A DNA stretch of 32,000 nt. Origin: Sphingomonadales bacterium (lineage in GTDB: Bacteria; Pseudomonadota; Alphaproteobacteria; Sphingomonadales; Sphingomonadaceae). Location of the stretch: the NCBI GenBank assembly GCA_027490095.1, contig JAIXYT010000038.1:77517-109516 (forward strand), read 5' to 3'. Made by a program: the position numbers and the translations under genes. Below are positions 20,926 through 29,959 of the stretch, in pieces (the stretch's first letter is position 1; each line of letters opens with the position of its first letter). A model generated the notes under the pieces. That model did no database searches. It was not told the DNA's origin and saw only the letters and a program-made list of their open reading frames with translations.

Positions 20926-20962
20926 CCCCGACTGATGCAGCGTGGCTCTGCGCGCTGCAAGC

Positions 20963-20991
20963 CTTCAAACTGCCGGGTGCGGTTCCTACAT
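20963..20991 (+). promoter_or_regulatory. candidate sigma-32 (RpoH) heat-shock promoter of hslVU
   Basis: CTTCAA-N16-CCTACAT about 60 nt upstream of hslV. It resembles CTTGAA-N16/17-CC(C/T)AT.T with one mismatch in the -35 element. hslVU is a classical RpoH regulon member. Confidence 0.4.
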
Positions 20992-21050
20992 CGCTGAAGA
21001 CACGGGGCCGCGCCGTTTGCCCGGCCCCCATGGAAAGGCAGTTTCCCTAG

Positions 21051-21593
21051 ATGAGCGAGAGTTTGACCTGGCACGGCACGACCATCCTTGGCGTGCGCAA
21101 GGATGGCCGGGTGGTGGTGGCCGGCGATGGGCAGGTGAGCCTGGGCCAGACCGTGATCAAGCCCAACGCGAAGAAGGTCCGCCGGCTGGGTGCGGACGGC
21201 CGGGTGGTGGGCGGCTTTGCCGGTTCGACCGCCGACGCCTTCACCCTGTTCGAGCGGCTGGAGGCGAAGCTGGAGCGCTATCCCGGCCAGCTGACGCGCG
21301 CCTGCGTGGAGCTGGCGAAGGACTGGCGGCAGGACCGGTATCTCAGGCGGCTGGAGGCGATGATGATCGTGGCCGACGCCGAGACCATGCTGATCCTGAC
21401 CGGCACCGGGGATGTGCTGGAGCCGACCGACGGGGTCGCCGCAATCGGCTCGGGCGGCAATTATGCGCTGGCGGCCGCCCGGGCGCTGATCGACACCGAT
21501 GCCGACGCGGAAGCCATTGCCCGCAAGGCGATGGGGATCGCGGCCGACATCTGCGTCTACACCAACACCAATCTGACCGTGGAAACCCTGTGA
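21051..21593 (+). CDS. hslV: ATP-dependent protease subunit HslV
   Basis: 180 aa. The catalytic Thr follows [27 protein letters not shown], with [10 protein letters not shown] and [14 protein letters not shown]. Confidence 0.97.
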
Positions 21594-22924
21594 TGGATGC
21601 TGTGACAAACCCTGTGCCCGGTGGCTTCGACACCCTGACGCCCAAGGCCATCGTGGCCGCACTGGACCGCCACATCGTCGGGCAGACCGATGCCAAGAAG
21701 GCGGTTGCCGTGGCGCTGAGGAACCGCTGGCGGCGCCAGCAGCTGGCGCCTGAGCTGCGCGACGAGGTGAACCCGAAGAACATCCTGATGATCGGGCCGA
21801 CGGGCTGCGGGAAGACGGAGATCAGCCGGCGGCTGGCGAAGCTGGCGGACGCGCCCTTCCTGAAGATCGAGGCGACCAAGTTCACCGAAGTCGGCTATGT
21901 CGGCCGCGACGTGGATTCGATCATCCGCGACCTGGTCGAGGAATCGATCCGCCTGACCCGCGAGCTGCGCCGCGAAAGCGTGCGCGAGGCCGCCGAGAAG
22001 GCCGCGCTCGACCGGCTGCTCGACGCGCTGGTGGGCAAGGATTCGAGCGAGGCGACGCGCCTGGCCTTTCGCGACCGCATCTTTGCGGGTCAGCTGAAAG
22101 GCAGGGAGGTCGACATCGAGGTGGAGGACACGGGCGGCCAGATGCCGTTCGAGGTGCCCGGCATGCCCGGAAGCATGCAGATGATCAACCTGGGCGACAT
22201 GCTGAAGGGCGCGATGGGCAAGCGGATGAAGCGCCGCAAGATGCCCGTGGAGGACGCCTGGGAGCTGCTGGTGAACGAGGAGAGCGACAAGAGGCTCGAC
22301 ACCGATGACCTGACGCGCGAGGCGGTGAAGAACGCCGAGGCCAACGGCATCGTGTTCCTGGACGAGATCGACAAGATCGCCGTCTCGGATGTGCGGGGCG
22401 GCAGCGTTTCGCGTGAGGGCGTGCAGCGCGACCTGCTGCCGCTGATCGAGGGCACGACGGTTGCGACCAAATATGGCCCGGTGAAGACCGACCATATCCT
22501 CTTCATCGCGTCGGGCGCCTTCCATGTGGCGAAGCCCGCCGACCTGCTGCCGGAGCTGCAGGGGCGGCTGCCGATCCGCGTGGAGCTGAAGGGGCTGTCG
22601 AAGGCCGACTTCATCCGCATCCTGTCCGACACCGAGGCCTCGCTGACGCGGCAGTATATCGCGCTGATGGCGACCGAGGGGGTGGAGTTGTCTTTCACGG
22701 AGGACGGGATCGCGGCGGTCGCCGACATTGCGGCGCAGGTGAACGACCGGGTGGAGAATATCGGCGCGCGGCGGCTGCAGACGGTGATGGAGAAGCTGCT
22801 GGAGGAGCTGAGCTACGAGGCGGCCGATGGCGGCCCGCGGGCGCTGGTGGTGGATGCGGCCTATGTGGAAAAGCAGCTCGCCGCGATCGCGCGGGACAAC
22901 GACCTGTCGAAGTTCATCCTGTAG
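21593..22924 (+). CDS. hslU: ATP-dependent protease ATPase subunit HslU
   Basis: 443 aa. The ATG overlaps the hslV TGA (TGATG). [17 protein letters not shown], Walker [11 protein letters not shown], and [10 protein letters not shown]. The longer ORF from 20942 is an artefactual extension. Confidence 0.97.
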
Positions 22925-22941
22925 AGCCGGCGCGGCGGGGC

Positions 22942-24372
22942 CTATTCCGCCGCCGCCCGGAGCGCCGGCGTCTCGAGCGCCCAGCCGCCGTCGGGGAAGA
23001 AGCCGCTGCCCTTGTCGCTGGAGAGTGCCGCCCAGGCTTCGCGGACGATCGCCCGGTCGAGCTCGCGCGTTGCCTCGGTCAGCTCGGCATAGGGCTTGAG
23101 GTCTGGGTGGATGCGCCGGGCGTTGTCGCGCGCCGGGCCCGGCCGCCAGCCGGACAGGGTGCGGTCCATCATCCAGCGCCGATGTTCCAGCTCGGCGAGG
23201 CGTTCGAGCAGATCCGGGTCTGAATCGAGGCTGGGCAGCGGGATTCCGCCTGTCGCGCTGGTGGGCGGCAGCGGCCGCCGAAGCCAGGCTGCGACGTCGA
23301 CTCCGGCGCTTGCGAGCTTGGCCGGCAGGTGCACGAGCTGGCGGCGGTTGGATTCGCGGAACTCCTCGGGCAGCCGCTCCCATTCGATGTTGGCGGGCGC
23401 GTCGGAGGGAGCTGTTCGCCGATAGGCCTCGTGGAACATCTGCGGCAGTGCATCGAAGTCCGGATCGAAGAGCCCGATTGCGGCCGCGAAGTCGGCGGTT
23501 GCGCCGAACTGCACAAGGCCTGCGACCTCGCCGTCCCTGGGCGCCTCGGGAAGCGCGCCGCCATGCACCAGCCGGGTGAAGATGGGGCCCATGGCCCAGC
23601 CTTCGCGGCGTGCGACGGCTTGCAGGGAGACTGCGAGCGCCATCGCCCTCAGGTCCTCGTCGATTGCGACATAGGCGAGCGTGAAGGGGTCTTCGGACTG
23701 GGCCAGCGCGAGCGCGTTCGTGGGCAGCAGCCGCACATCGGACACAAGCTCCGGGTCGATCAACTCGATGTCGACGGTTTCGGAGAGGCCGGGGCAGCGC
23801 TGGAACAGGCTGGCCCGGATCTCGCGGGCGCGCGGATCCACGATCGTCACCCGCGGCTTGCCGAGGAAGCTGGTGAGCGAGGAGAGCAGCAGGTCGGTCA
23901 GCACCGCCTCGCCGCCGCGGCCCAGCCCGAAGATCAGCGCATGGAGCCGCCGATGCCCGAGCCGGCGGGCGATGAGGAAGGGCGGAATGCGCCAGTGCAG
24001 CGCCCGGACCGACAGCTGGACCTGGCTGACGAAGCGGACGCCCTGGATATTCTCCAGCTCGTCCATCCGCTCGGCGAACCAGGCGTCGGCGAAGTTCATG
24101 ACGATCGGCAGCCGCGGCGACACCGCCCTGAGCGCGCGGACGGCGGCGACCTGCTGCACCTCGTTGCGGAAGGCGACGACCGCACGCGCGGCATGGTTCG
24201 CGGCGAAGCTTGTCGCAAGCGAAGGTTCCCACCGCTTGGGCACGATCAGCGCGCCCGGGATCGGCAGGGCCTCTTCCTCGGCATTGGAGATCCAGGTGAC
24301 GGTTGCCGCGCGGGCGGCGGCGGCCTCGGTCACGCCCCGGGCGACGCCATGGTCGCCGACCACCAGCAGATG
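22942..24372 (-). repeat. diverged direct repeat, copy A (paralogous coding DNA shared with 28481..29887)
   Basis: Residues 117-592 of paralogue A align collinearly with residues 25-492 of paralogue B. By hand count, 113 of 163 residues are identical over the C-terminal block. Nucleotide similarity is visible (for example GGGAAGAAGCCGCTGCC.., GATCGCCCGGTCGAGCTCGCG, CCAGCGNCGATGTTCCAGCTCGGC). Confidence 0.85.
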
Positions 24373-24720
24373 CCCGCGCCGATAGCGGCCGAACATCCGG
24401 CTGGCGTGGGTGGACAGGAGGGCGAGCACGGCCTTGGTCGCGGCCACCACGAAGGCGATCGCGCCCAGCACGCGGGCCGTATCGATCCGCCAGTCCTGGT
24501 TGTACCGTTCGGAGAAGGCATAGAGGTTGGACAGCGTGACCGCGTGCAGCGAATGGTAGAGCACGTCGAGCCAGGTGAGGTTCAGCGCCGCGGCCTGGGC
24601 ATGCCAGCCCCAGATCGCGAAGCCGATCGCGGCGATCGCAAGCGTCGGCAACAGCACAGTCAGGTTCAGGAATCGCCGCATGCCCTCGACTGCTTCCTTC
24701 AGGGTGAACGGCTGCCCCAT
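22942..24720 (-). CDS. membrane protein: 2-TM channel-like module, two RCK-N/TrkA-N-like Rossmann domains and C-terminal RyR-type repeats (paralogue A)
   Basis: 592 aa. Residues 1-110 read TM, then WLDVLYHSLHAVTLSNLY, then TM. Rossmann 1 is HLLVVGDHGVARG (degenerate) and Rossmann 2 is LHALIFGLGRGGEAVL (intact GxGxxG). The C-terminal LAELEHRRWMMDRTLSGWRPGPARDNARRIHPDLKPYAELTEATRELDRAIVREAW matches the RyR-domain signature. It lies 61 bp downstream of the SLC13 gene on the same strand. Confidence 0.8.
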   Translation of the reverse strand: MGQPFTLKEAVEGMRRFLNLTVLLPTLAIAAIGFAIWGWHAQAAALNLTWLDVLYHSLHAVTLSNLYAFSERYNQDWRIDTARVLGAIAFVVAATKAVLALLSTHASRMFGRYRRGHLLVVGDHGVARGVTEAAAARAATVTWISNAEEEALPIPGALIVPKRWEPSLATSFAANHAARAVVAFRNEVQQVAAVRALRAVSPRLPIVMNFADAWFAERMDELENIQGVRFVSQVQLSVRALHWRIPPFLIARRLGHRRLHALIFGLGRGGEAVLTDLLLSSLTSFLGKPRVTIVDPRAREIRASLFQRCPGLSETVDIELIDPELVSDVRLLPTNALALAQSEDPFTLAYVAIDEDLRAMALAVSLQAVARREGWAMGPIFTRLVHGGALPEAPRDGEVAGLVQFGATADFAAAIGLFDPDFDALPQMFHEAYRRTAPSDAPANIEWERLPEEFRESNRRQLVHLPAKLASAGVDVAAWLRRPLPPTSATGGIPLPSLDSDPDLLERLAELEHRRWMMDRTLSGWRPGPARDNARRIHPDLKPYAELTEATRELDRAIVREAWAALSSDKGSGFFPDGGWALETPALRAAAE

Positions 24721-24781
24721 GCCCGACCTGCCGCCCCAATGGCCACAGGAAAAGCGGTCGCGCCGGTCGGACTGCCCGGGC

Positions 24782-26593
24782 CTAGAAGGGCCAGACCACC
24801 GGCACCCAGAAGACGCTGACCACGAAGAACATCGCCATCATGCAGATGCCGAGCTTCCAGTAGTCGCTGAACTTGTAGCCGCCCGGGCCCATGACCATCA
24901 GGTTCACCGGCGTTGCGATGGGCGTGAGGAAGGCGGCTGCGCAGGCGACGTTCACGCTCATCAGCACGGGCGTCACGTTCACGCCCATGGTGCCGGCCGC
25001 GAGCACGGCCACCGGGATCACGATGAGGGCGGTCGCGGTGTTGGAGATCACCTGGCCGAGCACGGCGGAAATCACGAACAGCCCGATCAGCAGCGCGCGC
25101 GGGCTGTTGTCGCCCAGGAGCTCAACCAGATTGTCGGCGAGAAGCTGGGCAGCGCCCGTCTGGAACATGGCGGTCGACAGCGGCATCATGGCGCCGACCA
25201 GGATGATCGTCGTCCAGTTGATCGCGCGGTAGGCCTCTTCCACCTTCAAGAGGCCCGTCAGGATCACGGCGCCCGCTGCGATCAGGCCGGCGATGGCGGG
25301 CTGCACCAGGTTGAAGGCCAGCATCGCAACCATGCCCAGGAGGATCAGGATGGCGGCCTTCGCGCCCAGCCCCAGCGGGACGGCCTGCTTGCGCACGACG
25401 GCCGGGCTGTCCACCACCAGCACCGCGGGATCCGCGAGGTGGGTTTCGAGCGCCTGCCAGCTGCCCTGCATCAGAAGCGTGTCGCCGGCCGCGAGCTTGT
25501 GGCTGCCGGGCCCCAGCGCCTCGCCTGCGCGTTCCACGGCCAGCACGACAAGGTCTCCGGAAGCGGCGGTCATCCCCGGGAAGGCGGTCTCTCCCACCAG
25601 CCGTGAGCGCGGCGGGATCACCACCTCGGCGAGGCCCGAATTGCGGTTGAACAGCGTGTCCCCGATGTCGCCATCGCCGCTGCCGAGCACGGCGAGATCG
25701 TGGCGCTCGGCAAAGGCCGCGACCATGTCAGCCGGCCCCGATACGATCAGGGAATGGCCGGGCGCTAGCGGGGTATCCGCCGCCACTGCCTCGCCCGCAT
25801 CGGTCTTGCCGCGCGCCAGCACCAGGCCGGGATAGGCCGACGTGTCGATATCTGCCGCTGTCTTGCCGACGCAGGCCGAGCCCTCGCGCAGCTTCAGCTG
25901 GAACCAGCGACCGCTCAGTCGATACTGCTCTGTCAGCGTGCGCGCGTGGGCGGAGAAGTCCGCCGGCAGCGACGGCCCCTGGGTGTAGGGCAGCAGCCTG
26001 GGCCCGAGAAAGTAGACGATGGCGATCCCGCCGATGACCAGCGGAAGGCCCGACCAGGCGAATTCGAAGAAGCCGAACGGCTCGCCGCCCGCATCCTGGA
26101 GCGCATCGTTCACGATGACGGCGATCGGGGTGCCCGAGAGGGTGAGCTTGGAGCCCGTGTGGGCCCCGAAGGCAAGCGGCATCAGCAGCTGGGAGGGCGC
26201 CGTGCCGGTGCGGATGGCCAGCACCACGACCACGGGCAGCAGCGCTGCGACCGCGCCGTTCACGCTGATGAGGGCGGTGAGCACGGCGACCATCAGCATC
26301 ATCAGCACCAGAAGCCTGCCGCGCCCTTCATCGCCGGCCCAGTCGATCAGCTTCTGCCCGGCCCAGGCGGTCACGCCCGCCGCCTCGAGGCCTGCCGACA
26401 CCACGAACAGGCTGGCGATGAAGATGATGGTCGGGTCGCCGAAGCCCGAGAACACCTCCTGCAGGGACAGAACGCCGGTCAGGTAGAGTGCCAGCGGAAC
26501 GAGCAGTGCGACAATCACGACAGGGAGCCTGTTCTGCACGAACAGGATCACGGCGCCCACGATGATCAGGAAGACGATGGTGATGTCGCTCAA
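24782..26593 (-). CDS. SLC13/DASS-family permease with two central TrkA-C (RCK_C) domains
   Basis: 603 aa. N- and C-terminal polytopic halves typical of SLC13/CitT-like permeases. The central soluble region holds two RCK_C-like repeats (..WFQLKLREGSACVGKTAADI..GHSLIVSG.. and ..LAEVVIPPRSRLVGETAF..GDTLLMQG..). Confidence 0.9.
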   Translation of the reverse strand: MSDITIVFLIIVGAVILFVQNRLPVVIVALLVPLALYLTGVLSLQEVFSGFGDPTIIFIASLFVVSAGLEAAGVTAWAGQKLIDWAGDEGRGRLLVLMMLMVAVLTALISVNGAVAALLPVVVVLAIRTGTAPSQLLMPLAFGAHTGSKLTLSGTPIAVIVNDALQDAGGEPFGFFEFAWSGLPLVIGGIAIVYFLGPRLLPYTQGPSLPADFSAHARTLTEQYRLSGRWFQLKLREGSACVGKTAADIDTSAYPGLVLARGKTDAGEAVAADTPLAPGHSLIVSGPADMVAAFAERHDLAVLGSGDGDIGDTLFNRNSGLAEVVIPPRSRLVGETAFPGMTAASGDLVVLAVERAGEALGPGSHKLAAGDTLLMQGSWQALETHLADPAVLVVDSPAVVRKQAVPLGLGAKAAILILLGMVAMLAFNLVQPAIAGLIAAGAVILTGLLKVEEAYRAINWTTIILVGAMMPLSTAMFQTGAAQLLADNLVELLGDNSPRALLIGLFVISAVLGQVISNTATALIVIPVAVLAAGTMGVNVTPVLMSVNVACAAAFLTPIATPVNLMVMGPGGYKFSDYWKLGICMMAMFFVVSVFWVPVVWPF

Positions 26594-26664: not shown

Positions 26665-26693
26665 TTGACAGCAGGCGCGAAAGGGGCTGCTCT
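26665..26693 (+). promoter_or_regulatory. possible sigma-70-type promoter of the AbgT gene
   Basis: Perfect -35 TTGACA at 26665-26670. The -10 element 17 nt downstream is only weak (TGCTCT). The ORF-track TTG start coincides with this hexamer and is probably not a start codon. Confidence 0.3.
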
Positions 26694-26721
26694 GTGCTCC
26701 GGGAGAATTGGGGGAGAGCGA

Positions 26722-28284
26722 ATGGCGGAGGCCGAAAGCCCGCGAACCGGCATGGACCGCCTGCTCGACGTGATCGAGCGCGTGGGCAACAAGGTGCCGC
26801 ACCCGGCGGTGATCTTCCTGGTGATGATCGGCGTGGTGATCCTGGCTTCGGTCATCATGTCGGCGTTCGGCGCCGCGGTGACGCTGGAAACGGCCGGTGC
26901 CGACGGCGCGGTGACCCGGCAGGTGGTGGCGGTGCGCAGCCTGCTGTCGACCGAGGGCGTCCGCTTCATGCTGACGAGCTGGGTCGACAATTTCATGGCC
27001 TTCTCTGCGACCGGCATGATCCTCGTCGCGATGGTGGGGGTGGGCGTTGCCGAGCAGACCGGCCTTGTCGCGGCGCTCATTCGCAAGATCGTCGCCGTGA
27101 CGCCACCGTCGCTCATCACCTTCGTGATCGTGCTTCTGGGCGGGCTGTCCTCGGTTGCGGCGGACGCCGGCTATGTCGTCCTCATCCCGCTCGGCGCCAT
27201 GGCCTTCCTGAGTCTCGGCCGGCACCCGCTGGCGGGCATTGCGGCGGCCTTTGCCGGGGTGTCGGCGGTGTTCGGGGTGAATGTCCTCATCACCCCGCTG
27301 GATGGGGCGCTGACCGAGATCACCAACGACGCGATCGCGCTTGTCCGCCCCGGCACCACGCTCGACCTGACGGCGACCATGTGGTTTTCGACCGTCAGCC
27401 TGGTGCTGATGTCGGCGCTGTGTGCGTGGATCACCGAAAAGAAGGTGGAGCCGCACCTTGGCACCTATGATCCGGCCGACGCCGGCCCGGTTGCAGCTGC
27501 GGGCACGACTGCGGAGGACTGTGCGACGAAGCAGGCGCCCGAGGACGAGGCGCGCGGGCTTCGCTGGGCGTTGTGGGCGCTGATCGCGTTCATCGCCTTT
27601 GTGGTGGCGCTGAGCTGGGGCGAGGGCGCGGTGTTCCGCAACCCCGAGACGGGGTCGCTGATTTCCGACAGCCCGCTGATGAAGGGGCTGATCGTGCTGG
27701 TGGCCTTGCTGTTCCTGGCGGTGGGCGCAGCCTATGGCGCGGGCGCCGGCACGCTGAAGAGCGTGTCGGAGGCGATCGGCATGATCGACAAGGCCTTCAA
27801 GGGGATGGGTCCGCTGATCTTCCTGTTCCTGGTGATCGCCCAGTTCCTGGCCTTCTTCGGCTTCACGAACATTGCGACGGTGCTTGCGGTGAACATGGCC
27901 GACGCGCTGGTTGCGGCCAATCTGGGCTCCGTCACCCTGATCCTGGGCTTCGTGGCCGCTATCCTCGTGCTCGACATATTGATGCCGGGCGCCATTCCGA
28001 AATGGGCGATCTTCGCGCCCATCTTCATTCCGCTGTTCATCCAGCTGGGGAGCGACCCTGCGACGGTGCTTGCGGCCTATCGGGTGGCGGATTCGCCGAT
28101 GAACGTGATCACGCCGCTGATGGGCTATTTCCCGCTGATCGTGATCTTCTGCCAGCAATATGTGAAGGATGCGGGTGTCGGCACGGTGATTGCGATGATG
28201 CTGCCCTACACGCTGTGGCTGGTGCCGATCTGGACCGCGATCCTGGTGGGCTGGTACATGTTGCAGCTGCCCTGGGGGTTCTGA
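26722..28284 (+). CDS. AbgT-family transporter (p-aminobenzoyl-glutamate / MtrF-type)
   Basis: ATG at 26722 after GGGGGAGAG. The N-terminus LLDVIERVGNKVPHPAVIFLVMIG matches the AbgT signature (ERIGNKVPHP), and the protein is polytopic throughout. Confidence 0.9.
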   Translation: MAEAESPRTGMDRLLDVIERVGNKVPHPAVIFLVMIGVVILASVIMSAFGAAVTLETAGADGAVTRQVVAVRSLLSTEGVRFMLTSWVDNFMAFSATGMILVAMVGVGVAEQTGLVAALIRKIVAVTPPSLITFVIVLLGGLSSVAADAGYVVLIPLGAMAFLSLGRHPLAGIAAAFAGVSAVFGVNVLITPLDGALTEITNDAIALVRPGTTLDLTATMWFSTVSLVLMSALCAWITEKKVEPHLGTYDPADAGPVAAAGTTAEDCATKQAPEDEARGLRWALWALIAFIAFVVALSWGEGAVFRNPETGSLISDSPLMKGLIVLVALLFLAVGAAYGAGAGTLKSVSEAIGMIDKAFKGMGPLIFLFLVIAQFLAFFGFTNIATVLAVNMADALVAANLGSVTLILGFVAAILVLDILMPGAIPKWAIFAPIFIPLFIQLGSDPATVLAAYRVADSPMNVITPLMGYFPLIVIFCQQYVKDAGVGTVIAMMLPYTLWLVPIWTAILVGWYMLQLPWGF

Positions 28285-28480: not shown

Positions 28481-29887
28481 CTAGCCCTTCGCTACGCGCT
28501 GCATGGCCCCGCCGTGGGGGAAGAAGCCGCTGCCCCGCGATGTGCCGAGCGTTTCCCAGGCCTCGCGCACGATCGCCCGGTCGAGCTCGCGGGTGTATTC
28601 GTCGAGCGCTTCGTAGGGGACGAGGTCGGGGTGGTGGCGCGCGTCGTTGTCGCGCACCGGGCCGTAGTGCCAGCCTGAAAGGCGCCGATCGACCATCCAG
28701 CGGCGATGTTCCAGCTCGGCCATCGTTTCCATCAGCGCGGGGTCGGCCTCGAGGTCGGGCAGCGGGATGCCGCCGGCCTCGTTGGTCACCGGGAGGGGTG
28801 TCCGGAGCCAGGCGGCGAGGTCCACCTTGGCCGTCAGCAGCTTCGCCGGCAGGTGCACGAGGAGGCGCCGGTTGGATTCGCGAAACTCTTCCGAAAGCTC
28901 TTCCCAGGGGCAGTTCGCCGGCGTGCCGGGGCGGGCGGTTCGCCGGTACGTTTCGTGGAACATGCGGGCGAGCAGGTCGATGTCGGGGTCGAACAGGCCG
29001 ATCGCTTCGGCGAAGTCGGCATTGGCCCCGAACATCAGCAGCTCGGCCGGTTCGTCGGTGACGGGAAGGCGCGGCAACTCGCCGCCGCCGGCCTGGCGCA
29101 CGAAGACCGGGCCCATCTGCCAGCGCTCCCGCGTGGCCAGCGCGTGGAAGGCGCGGGCCAGCGCCAGCGCGCGGACGTCGGCGTCGATCGACACATGGGC
29201 GAAGGTGAAGGGGTCTTCGGCGGCTGCGGCGAGCAGTGCGTCTGCAGGGATATGGCGTGGATCGTCGACGTCGCCCGCCTCGACGAAATGGATTTCGGCG
29301 GATTGGCCGATTTCCGGACAGCGGCGGAGCAGGTCGTCGCGCACCTCGGCAGCGCGGCGGTCGACGATCGTGATGCGCGGGGTGTCGAGATAGCCGGTCA
29401 GGCCGCAGAGCAGCAGGTCGGTCAGGATGCAGTCGCCGCCCCGGCCGAAGCCGAAGAGCAGGGCGTGGATGCGCGCATGGCCGAGGTTGCGGGCGATGAG
29501 CGGCGGCGGGTTGCGCCAGTGGAGGTCGCGCACGGCGAGCTGCACCTGGCTGACGAAGCGGACGTTCGAAAGCCCCGCCGTCTCGTTGCCGCGATCGGCG
29601 AACCAGCTGTCGGTGAAATTCACCATGATCGGCAGGGACGGGGCCCTGGCGCGCAGCGCCTCGACCGCCGGGATCTGCCGGGTCTCGTCGGCGAAGGCGA
29701 CAATTGCGCGTGCCGCGGTTGCCGCATGGCCGGCGTGCTGTGCGCCCCAGGGGGCCGCCACCAGCTCGACCCCGGGCATGGGGTTTGCCACCCTGCCGTT
29801 GGTGATCCAGGTGACGGGGGCATTGCGGCGCGCGGCGGCGGCAACCACGCCATCGGCAAGTGGATGGTCGCCGACCACCAGCAGATG
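28481..29887 (-). repeat. diverged direct repeat, copy B (paralogous to 22942..24372)
   Basis: See copy A. Same orientation, with the two copies 5.5 kb apart. Confidence 0.85.
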
Positions 29888-29959
29888 GTCGTGCAGCAGA
29901 TCCGGCGTGCCGGCACTGCCTGTGTCGGCCACGGTGTGGGAAACGCGCGTCACACCCAT
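28481..29959 (-). CDS. soluble paralogue B: two RCK-N-like Rossmann domains and RyR-type repeats, lacking the 2-TM module
   Basis: 492 aa. HLLVVGDHPLADG, IHALLFGFGRGGDCIL, and a C-terminal MAELEHRRWMVDRRLSGWHYGPVRDNDARHHPDLVPYEALDEYTRELDRAIVREAW. It lies 106 bp downstream of dnaJ on the same strand. Confidence 0.8.
   Translation of the reverse strand: MGVTRVSHTVADTGSAGTPDLLHDHLLVVGDHPLADGVVAAAARRNAPVTWITNGRVANPMPGVELVAAPWGAQHAGHAATAARAIVAFADETRQIPAVEALRARAPSLPIMVNFTDSWFADRGNETAGLSNVRFVSQVQLAVRDLHWRNPPPLIARNLGHARIHALLFGFGRGGDCILTDLLLCGLTGYLDTPRITIVDRRAAEVRDDLLRRCPEIGQSAEIHFVEAGDVDDPRHIPADALLAAAAEDPFTFAHVSIDADVRALALARAFHALATRERWQMGPVFVRQAGGGELPRLPVTDEPAELLMFGANADFAEAIGLFDPDIDLLARMFHETYRRTARPGTPANCPWEELSEEFRESNRRLLVHLPAKLLTAKVDLAAWLRTPLPVTNEAGGIPLPDLEADPALMETMAELEHRRWMVDRRLSGWHYGPVRDNDARHHPDLVPYEALDEYTRELDRAIVREAWETLGTSRGSGFFPHGGAMQRVAKG

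Follow-up and report, generated by a model that had tools for sequence, protein, structure and literature searches.

Can a membrane module laid out like the pore of a potassium channel, but without a potassium filter, still belong to an ion channel? The question is raised by a gene on the reverse strand of a 32,000-nucleotide stretch of DNA from a Sphingomonadales bacterium (assembly GCA_027490095.1, contig JAIXYT010000038.1, positions 77,517 to 109,516; hereafter the window, in whose coordinates all positions are given). The gene occupies 22942..24720 (-) and is a 592-aa open reading frame (ORF) encoding, in order, a two-transmembrane (2-TM) pore-loop-like module, an RCK-like domain, a second Rossmann domain and a ryanodine receptor (RyR) domain. 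According to the ORF list, 24391-24720 (-) codes for amino acids (aa) 1-110, which a first-pass annotation had read as the pore of an RCK-gated K+ channel with an ablated selectivity filter. Our preferred answer, which in our judgement stands at about an even chance, is that the protein is a subunit of a tetrameric, nucleotide-gated pore-loop channel that is not selective for K+.

The membrane module and its conservation

The proposed order of TM1, short helix, loop, TM2 and Rossmann domain is borne out by hydropathy and by AlphaFold2 secondary structure. A Kyte-Doolittle scan gave exactly two hydrophobic regions with 19-mers above 1.5, at ~16-41 and 81-106; the rest of the sequence has no such region. 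The AlphaFold2 model places helices at 20-41, 50-61 and 77-112 and its first strand at 118-121. TM1 (aa 17-39, FLNLTVLLPTLAIAAIGFAIWGW; 24604..24672 (-)) ends in a conserved W-G-W. It is followed by a short pore-helix-like helix (aa 50-61; 24538..24573 (-)) that carries D52 and Y55, and then by the filter-equivalent loop (aa 62-76, TLSNLYAFSERYNQD; 24493..24537 (-)), which is glycine-free and lacks TVGYG. The TM2 or inner-helix equivalent (aa 77-104; 24409..24492 (-)) starts with W77-R78...R83. All four peptide segments singled out in the first-pass annotation are present, namely FLNLTVLLPTLAIAAIGFAIWGW, WLDVLYHSLHAVTLSNLY (aa 50-67), ARVLGAIAFVVAATKAVLALL (aa 82-102) and the strand GHLLVVGDHG (aa 116-125). 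Since basic residues (counted by eye) flank both cytoplasmic ends, the topology is probably N-in/C-in, with the remaining protein in the cytoplasm.

Two finer claims about the pore region fared differently. The missing TVGYG stands, as the protein reads TLSNLY at the filter position. The pore-helix pattern W-x3-LY-x5-T is recognizable, but W50 occurs only in the closest orthologues and the spacing from Y55 to T62 is six residues, not five.

Conservation was measured over 197 aligned family modules, as mean column entropy in bits. TM1 closes with G38, a glycine in 191 of the 197, and W39, which is W or F in 173. In the short helix, D52 is D in 160 and Y55 is Y in 151, and the hydrophobic positions are likewise conserved. 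TM2 opens with W77 (W in 157), soon followed by the conserved A82 and by R83, which is R in as many as 194, so that D52, Y/F55, W77 and R83 emerge as the positions conserved across the family. Low-entropy columns, mainly Ala, Gly and Leu, recur every three to four positions along TM2. R83 (window 24470-24472, -) lies at the outer end of TM2 and K96 (window 24431-24433, -) in its middle. At the K96 position a Q, K or R is conserved mid-membrane, which we read as unexpected for a passive anchor; the basic residues at R83 and at the K96 position, if they do face a pore, could disfavour cations.

The loop behaves quite differently from the helices that flank it. Entropy is lowest in the short helix (2.07 bits) and nearly as low in TM2 (2.10), whereas the filter-equivalent stretch, at 3.29 bits, is about as variable as the linker between TM1 and the short helix (3.26). 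Its consensus in the wider family is (T/V)-L-(E/S/A/N)-(S/T/G/D)-(G/A/S/P), with LQLF(T/V)LESG in many members, while the alphaproteobacterial clade of the target protein has T-L-S-(T/N)-x-Y, frequently with D or E as the next residue (TLSNLYAFSE in the target itself). TLSNLY is therefore not a conserved segment. Inspection of the 145 newly retrieved relatives (P0086-P0230) revealed no G[YFL]G in this stretch, and the idea of an ablated, that is lost, K+ filter does not survive the comparison: the pore-loop scaffold is constrained while the filter stretch is not, which argues against any recent ablation. To judge from these sequences, the family looks like an old, separate pore-loop-like lineage with no sign of ever having had a K+ filter.

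A glutamate occupies the filter-equivalent position in 44 of the 197 family members, the target not among them, and in relatives that carry LQLF(T/V)LESG (e.g. P0124, P0142, P0199) a tetramer could present a ring of four. The LQLF-TLES-G of the wider family resembles the FQVM-TLES-W of bacterial voltage-gated Na+ channels (BacNav), and TLESW is the filter of NavAb and NaChBac. We considered a link to these channels and rejected it, as the hhalign comparison with the pores of NavAb, NavMs and NaChBac yielded P 0.064 with a probability of 0.9%, and the glutamate is a minority state.

Predicted fold of the module and of the whole chain

Structure prediction supports a channel-type fold. We modelled the full-length protein with AlphaFold2 from a 52-sequence alignment (predicted local distance difference test, pLDDT, 87.4; predicted template-modelling score, pTM, 0.81) and the isolated module, aa 14-118, by itself (pLDDT 83.9), and compared the models by Foldseek with PDB chains, numbering 350,542 in the search with the isolated module. 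An outer helix, a re-entrant pore helix, a loop and an inner helix are all present in the predicted structure. By our count, 49 of the 50 best matches of the isolated module are pores of tetrameric pore-loop channels, and they include MthK, KcsA, NaK/NaK2K, Slo2.2, a NaK-NavSulP chimera, K2P (TREK-1) and an NMDA receptor. Foldseek probabilities were 0.7-1.0, and the best TM-score was 0.60 by target length at ~20% identity, against the MthK pore (3ldd).

The full-length model found full-length chains of GsuK as its best match (4gx0_B, E 1.7e-6, 512 aligned columns, 13-15% identity). After it came full-length MthK, TrkA (4j9v/4g65), the DMI1 ring 7vm8 (E 3.9e-4) and Slo2.2, and further matches were the E. 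coli Kch RCK domain and RyR3 Repeat12. On this prediction, the complete polypeptide follows the plan of a dual-RCK 2-TM channel to which one more domain has been added at the C-terminus.

Profile-profile comparison gives the same order of elements with little statistical force. Aligned by hhalign with the pores of MthK, KcsA and NaK, the module matched over 83 columns, with TM1, pore helix, loop and TM2 in sequence (P 0.0019, probability 14.5%), and against seven MthK-like proteins it matched over 31 columns that take in the last part of TM1 and the beginning of the pore helix (P 0.0017, probability 15.7%). The MthK query sequence was confirmed by a 99%-identical database protein. The MthK pore retrieved only the seven MthK-like, PF07885-annotated proteins, so the K+ profile was narrow (effective number of sequences, Neff, 1.5), which limits the sensitivity of hhalign here. 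T62-L63 falls one residue off register with the T-V of TVGYG, and the exact filter register is for that reason not fixed. Likeness to RCK-gated 2-TM channels of the MthK/Kch type therefore holds for the order of segments, the predicted fold and the GsuK match, and not for hidden Markov model (HMM) matches of the module to channel pores, of which there were none; at the profile-profile level it is weak (P 0.0017-0.0019).

The cytoplasmic domains

Beyond the membrane module, the first-pass annotation had noted a single Rossmann strand and had overlooked both the second Rossmann domain and the C-terminal RyR domain, as well as a paralogue without TM helices (below). The first Rossmann domain, RCK1-like (aa ~117-250; 23971..24372 (-)), begins in the model with strands and helices from residue 118 and superposes on the E. 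coli Kch RCK domain (1id1_B) with a root-mean-square deviation of 2.5 A over 120 columns by Foldseek. In the target its beta-2 strand ends in N, and in the wider family its glycine motif is the canonical CGLGRKG. An RCK-type domain directly after TM2 is supported by the predicted fold and by TrkA_N matches in 58 of 82 relatives; the target itself has no TrkA_N match at E <= 1. Two RCK-fold domains per subunit are indicated by the Foldseek matches to GsuK, TrkA, the DMI1 ring, MthK and 1id1, at the level of the predicted fold.

The second Rossmann domain (aa ~258-405; 23506..23949 (-)) has an intact dinucleotide-binding fingerprint, GLGRGG...D295, in which G265 is invariant and G267, G270 and D295 nearly so. 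Its Foldseek matches are the tandem-RCK proteins GsuK, TrkA (4j9v/4g65) and the DMI1 ring 7vm8.

The RyR tandem-repeat-like domain (aa ~416-567; 23020..23475 (-)) is the only part of the target that Pfam recognizes. PF02026 matches aa 503-563 (23032-23214) with E 1.5e-12 and 48 bits, against a cut-off of 27.4. Searches with phmmer retrieved the RyR1/2/3 repeats and the bacterial 3NRT/6UAG, with one alignment spanning aa 416-563; the C-terminal ~150 residues align to RyR2 residues 2644-2780, that is, to a complete RyR tandem-repeat domain, and Foldseek aligns the domain with RyR3 Repeat12 over 176-185 columns.

Phage proteins with an RyR domain (RyDEP) bind or cleave 2'/3' cyclic ADP-ribose (cADPR), and their ligand contacts H75, W78, H100 and D117 are reported to be conserved in animal RyR Repeat12 and across PF02026 (2026 preprint, PMC13232231). 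The target has H513, W516, H538 and D555 (window 23056-23184, -) at identical spacing, a correspondence drawn from spacing and motif and not from an alignment with RyDEP itself. Among 52 homologues these residues are kept in 52, 52, 49 and 45, respectively, and among 82 wider-family members in 78, 75, 55 and 66. Because they share the spacing and the conservation of the RyDEP contacts, a nucleotide-type ligand for this domain is plausible on sequence grounds.

A large family without a name

Our first search yielded 85 homologues, all annotated with PF02026, one of which (P0085) also carries PF02254 (TrkA_N). Scanning genomes placed homologues in Sphingomonadales, Caulobacterales, Rhodobacterales and Hyphomonadaceae. 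The closest genome, a metagenome-assembled genome (MAG) of Sandaracinobacter sp., has a member 83% identical to the target. This MAG (JTS-AC95; L005, L006) carries two TM-bearing members, 83% and 54% identical to the target, so several paralogues per genome seem common in the target's group. Cultured strains with family members include Caulobacter sp. KR2-114 and Harenicola maris KMM 3653.

The membrane module itself defines a far larger set. When its profile (aa 14-118) was run exhaustively with HMMER against 1.84 billion proteins, 653 cluster representatives matched at E <= 1e-3, which makes the module more than a chance pattern, and we take the family to comprise at least 653 clusters at 50% identity; most of these proteins are 540-620 aa long. 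RyR was found in 72 of 82 full-length members and TrkA_N in 58 (best TrkA_N E 2.6e-22), and the architecture of the family is 2TM, TrkA_N/RCK, second Rossmann domain, RyR. By comparison, a word-index homologue search with the TM-module alignment (A4) gave a single match, as such an index reaches poorly from short hydrophobic queries.

Source databases call these proteins 'RyR domain-containing protein', 'TrkA family protein/RyR domain-containing protein' or 'hypothetical protein'; one wider-family member is named 'voltage-gated potassium channel Kch' (Joint Genome Institute, JGI). The first-pass annotation knew of no characterized member with this arrangement, and we likewise found none, nor any description of a 2TM-RCK-Rossmann-RyR architecture in the literature, including a 2026 survey of prokaryotic channels. 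The family is thus large, unnamed and unannotated, with an unexpected pairing of domains.

Paralogue, neighbouring genes and gene limits

The window holds a second, soluble member of the family 3.7 kb from the target. This 492-aa protein (28481..29959 (-)) has the RCK-like, Rossmann and RyR domains without the TM module, is 60% identical to aa 117-579 of the target, and has its own RyR match (E 3e-14, 53.5 bits). In a neighbour-joining tree of the cytoplasmic region (without bootstrap), the TM-less forms make up a single clade nested inside the TM-bearing proteins, which suggests that they lost the membrane module secondarily. No remnant of that module lies near the paralogue, as tblastn of aa 1-116 against the window finds the target alone. 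The paralogue might co-assemble with the TM form or regulate the adjacent transporters.

One such transporter, of the CitMHS family and with two TrkA_C domains (24782..26593 (-); Pfam CitMHS E 3.9e-94, TrkA_C E 1.4e-8), lies 61 bp upstream of the target start on the same strand. We found no promoter-like or terminator-like site in 22700-25000, and the two genes are possibly co-transcribed. Divergent from the CitMHS gene is an AbgT-family transporter gene (26665-28284 (+)). No TrkH or KtrB gene occurs among the neighbours that we scanned with Pfam.

The gene order dnaJ, soluble paralogue, abgT, citMHS, TM form, hslU, hslV recurs in the contig with the 95%-identical P0001. In a related contig (L004) the block of soluble paralogue, abgT and citMHS is kept without the TM form, and the distant orthologue P0029 adjoins a GTP cyclohydrolase II gene and unrelated housekeeping genes. 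A role in anti-phage defence, considered in view of the RyDEP/Thoeris paper, was rejected: PADLOC-DB gave no match at E <= 0.01 for the target, the paralogue or two wider-family members, and the neighbours are housekeeping genes.

The start of the target gene may lie further in than annotated. Most homologues begin at the equivalent of M14 (MRRFLNL), and P0001, the closest relative, is alone in sharing the 13 extra residues that follow from the annotated ATG at 24720; translation may really begin at 24681. An MthK-like internal start at M109, just before the RCK domain, was also considered and rejected, this Met not being conserved in the homologues. An exact-sequence look-up found no record of the target sequence. 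On the other strand, hslU lies inside the listed ORF 20942-22924 (+), which carries a long spurious N-terminal extension and converges on the target gene, the two stop codons being 17 bp apart. Very long ORFs (up to 1060 aa; 21557-24739 (-), 23329-24819 (+) and others) overlap the real genes in other frames; rich in Arg, Ala, Pro and Gly, they are typical artefacts of DNA with ~69% G+C and not genes.

A channel, a sensor or an artefact?

In the mechanism we favour, aa 17-104 would form the outer helix, the re-entrant pore helix with its loop, and the inner helix of each subunit. The inner helix would lead without a break into the cytoplasmic part, to which each subunit would contribute two tandem Rossmann/RCK-type domains, as in GsuK, followed by the RyR Repeat12-like domain. 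Adenine-containing ligands (ATP/ADP, NAD+ or ADP-ribose-type) would bind at the GxGxxG...D fingerprint in Rossmann domain 2, at the RyR domain's H-W-H-D pocket, or at both, and in doing so would reshape the cytoplasmic ring and pull the inner helices open. Because the pore loop is glycine-free and variable among relatives, it could not provide a backbone-carbonyl K+ filter and the channel would not be K+-selective; selectivity, if any, would be set by side chains. With such a loop, an arginine at the outer mouth and a Q, K or R in the inner helix, selectivity could be unlike that of known members of the superfamily, whether non-selective, divalent-selective or anion-permeable. The segments and their conservation, the domain content, the matches of the predicted fold and the size of the family are what the analysis shows directly; that the module is homologous to channel pores, forms tetramers and conducts ions, and which ligand gates it and how, we infer, and the central claim of a pore draws on structure prediction together with a weak profile similarity.

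A good deal weighs against this interpretation. No sequence model of a channel recognizes the module: neither Ion_trans_2 (PF07885) nor Ion_trans matches the target at E <= 1 (Pfam), any of the 82 full-length relatives at E <= 0.01, or any of 69 isolated TM modules at E <= 10, and no other Pfam family recurs among the last. The HMM check proposed in the first-pass annotation, with Ion_trans_2 and TrkA_N (PF02254), thus failed for the target on both counts, and NCBIfam offered only a feeble Kch match to the RCK part (aa 113-187, E 0.1). Searched against all PDB sequences at E <= 10, neither the narrow (A2) nor the wide (A4) HMMER profile of the TM module retrieved a channel, the matches being at chance level, and the hhalign probability is only ~15%. 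The Foldseek E-values of the isolated module are 0.1-0.9, as expected for a helical domain of 80-100 residues, and the evidence for the fold therefore comes from one predictor and from the specificity of its match list. Within the module, conservation is lowest in the filter-equivalent loop, the opposite of what is seen in known selective channels, and this loop is also the part modelled with the lowest confidence (pLDDT 56-62). In the cytoplasm, the RCK1 glycine motif is degenerate in the target's clade (VVGDHGVA), and the TM-less paralogue clade keeps all of the cytoplasmic domains, which implies that these domains serve some function for which no attached pore is required.

In a rather unlikely alternative, the protein would be no channel and the 2-TM module would only tether, and perhaps oligomerize, an RCK-RCK-RyR assembly that senses nucleotides and regulates another membrane protein, such as the adjacent CitMHS/TrkA_C transporter. 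TrkA and KtrA regulate TrkH and KtrB in this way, and soluble TrkA rings are also among the Foldseek matches. It is mainly the unconstrained filter stretch, along with the lack of any channel HMM match, that keeps this alternative alive, but it also draws on the TM-less paralogues, which are derived from TM-bearing ancestors and work without a pore of their own, and on the gene neighbourhood, where the target follows a same-strand CitMHS/TrkA_C gene with no terminator-like site between and where related contigs keep soluble paralogue, abgT and citMHS as a block. That linkage is not conserved, however, as P0029 has other neighbours and L004 has the transporters but no TM form in the slot. Conservation of D52, W77, R83 and a mid-membrane Q, K or R across 197 diverse sequences would also be surprising in a simple anchor, as would a predicted re-entrant pore-helix fold whose matches are almost all channel pores. 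The specificity of that match list (49 of the top 50 among all chains searched) also counts against the improbable view that the pore-like fold is an artefact, with aa 1-110 a generic helical hairpin plus a periplasmic amphipathic helix that AlphaFold2 drew as a K+ pore from similar segment lengths. Non-significant E-values, TM-scores of ~0.5-0.6 for a helical domain of this size, the poorly modelled loop and the uniformly negative sequence-to-profile tests are what such an artefact would give, yet the independent profile-profile alignment recovers the same order of elements (P ~0.002), the downstream domains are those that gate 2-TM channels, and GsuK is the best match for the whole protein. 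Highly improbable, finally, is a true K+-selective channel with an unusual filter. K+ selectivity requires the conserved backbone geometry of T-x-G-Y/F-G, whereas TLSNLY is glycine-free and lies in a segment that is not conserved; the GsuK/MthK-like architecture and the JGI name 'Kch' on one member speak for it, but the name was probably given for the RCK domain only. With neither an HMM match nor the filter signature, we rejected membership of Ion_trans_2, and the protein should not be filed as a K+ channel.

If the target is the channel subunit we favour, the family as a whole may be an ancient and so far unrecognized bacterial branch of the tetrameric pore-loop channels, in which a RyR Repeat12-like domain and a dual-RCK ring would together control the gate in response to adenine nucleotides, NAD+ or ligands of the ADP-ribose type; this wider claim we regard as possible, on the doubtful side. 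Such a family would join a prokaryotic pore-loop channel to an RyR domain, a combination that elsewhere is known from the ryanodine receptors of animals and the PKDRR proteins of oomycetes. The RCK-gated 2-TM channels would thereby gain a large non-K+ branch, unmatched by any Pfam model in our scans, and a domain that in phage RyDEP is reported to recognize, sequester or cleave nucleotides (adenine, cADPR-type) would be physically coupled to a bacterial channel. At ~590 residues per subunit, it would be a small and tractable system for learning how an RyR repeat passes ligand binding to a pore, would bear on the long-debated regulation of ryanodine receptors by cADPR and nucleotides, and would test how much of the pore-loop scaffold survives once the filter is free to vary. 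If the module is an anchor only, a channel-like scaffold would have been reused for a membrane-tethered nucleotide sensor, with the TM-less paralogue as the next step on that path.

Comparison with known systems

GsuK of Geobacter sulfurreducens (4GX0/4GX1/4GX2/4GX5) resembles the target in having one 2-TM module and two tandem Rossmann/RCK-type domains in the same chain. GsuK binds its activators ADP and NAD+ on RCK2 (PMC3510474); the intact GxGxxG...D of the target is likewise in the second domain. Unlike the target, with its TLSNLY and no channel HMM match, GsuK is described as a K+ channel, and we have seen no RyR domain reported for it. MthK (1LNQ, 3LDD, 6OLY) is the closest fold match of the TM module (TM-score 0.55-0.60, ~20% identity): its TM1, pore helix and TM2 are aligned with those of the target in order by hhalign, and in the target, too, the Rossmann domain starts about a dozen residues past the hydrophobic part of TM2. 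In contrast, MthK has TVGYG and one RCK domain per subunit plus a soluble RCK from an internal start (PMC3510474), and it lacks an RyR domain.

The plant nuclear channels CASTOR, POLLUX and DMI1 (7VM8) are pore-loop channels gated by a tandem-RCK ring and, like the target, lack TVGYG. CASTOR is Ca2+-selective without TVGYG (PMC6697748), so RCK-ring channels need not be K+ channels. These eukaryotic proteins differ in having two extra TM helices, a Ca2+ ligand and no RyR domain. The CASTOR filter, ADS(A)GNHA, is highly conserved, and changing its acidic residue (D265N) abolished channel activity (PMC6697748), whereas the equivalent loop of the target is variable. To the BacNav pores (NavAb, NaChBac) there is only the motif-level resemblance of TLES in the wider family, and the target has no voltage sensor. 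TrkA and KtrA (4J9U, 4J9V, 4G65, 5BUT), soluble tandem Rossmann/RCK proteins whose partners are TrkH or KtrB, offer an analogy for the 492-aa paralogue, again without an RyR domain.

For the C-terminal domain, the sequence matches are RyR proteins (Repeat12 of RyR1-3, 6UHH and 9L90; Bacteroides thetaiotaomicron 3NRT/6UAG), and phage RyDEP has the same H/W/H/D residues at the same spacing. The target differs from all of these in carrying a 2-TM module and two Rossmann domains on the same chain as its RyR domain; the animal receptors have a different, six-TM pore region. By analogy, then, the target would be most like GsuK and MthK, with a CASTOR-like departure from K+ selectivity and with an RyR domain added.

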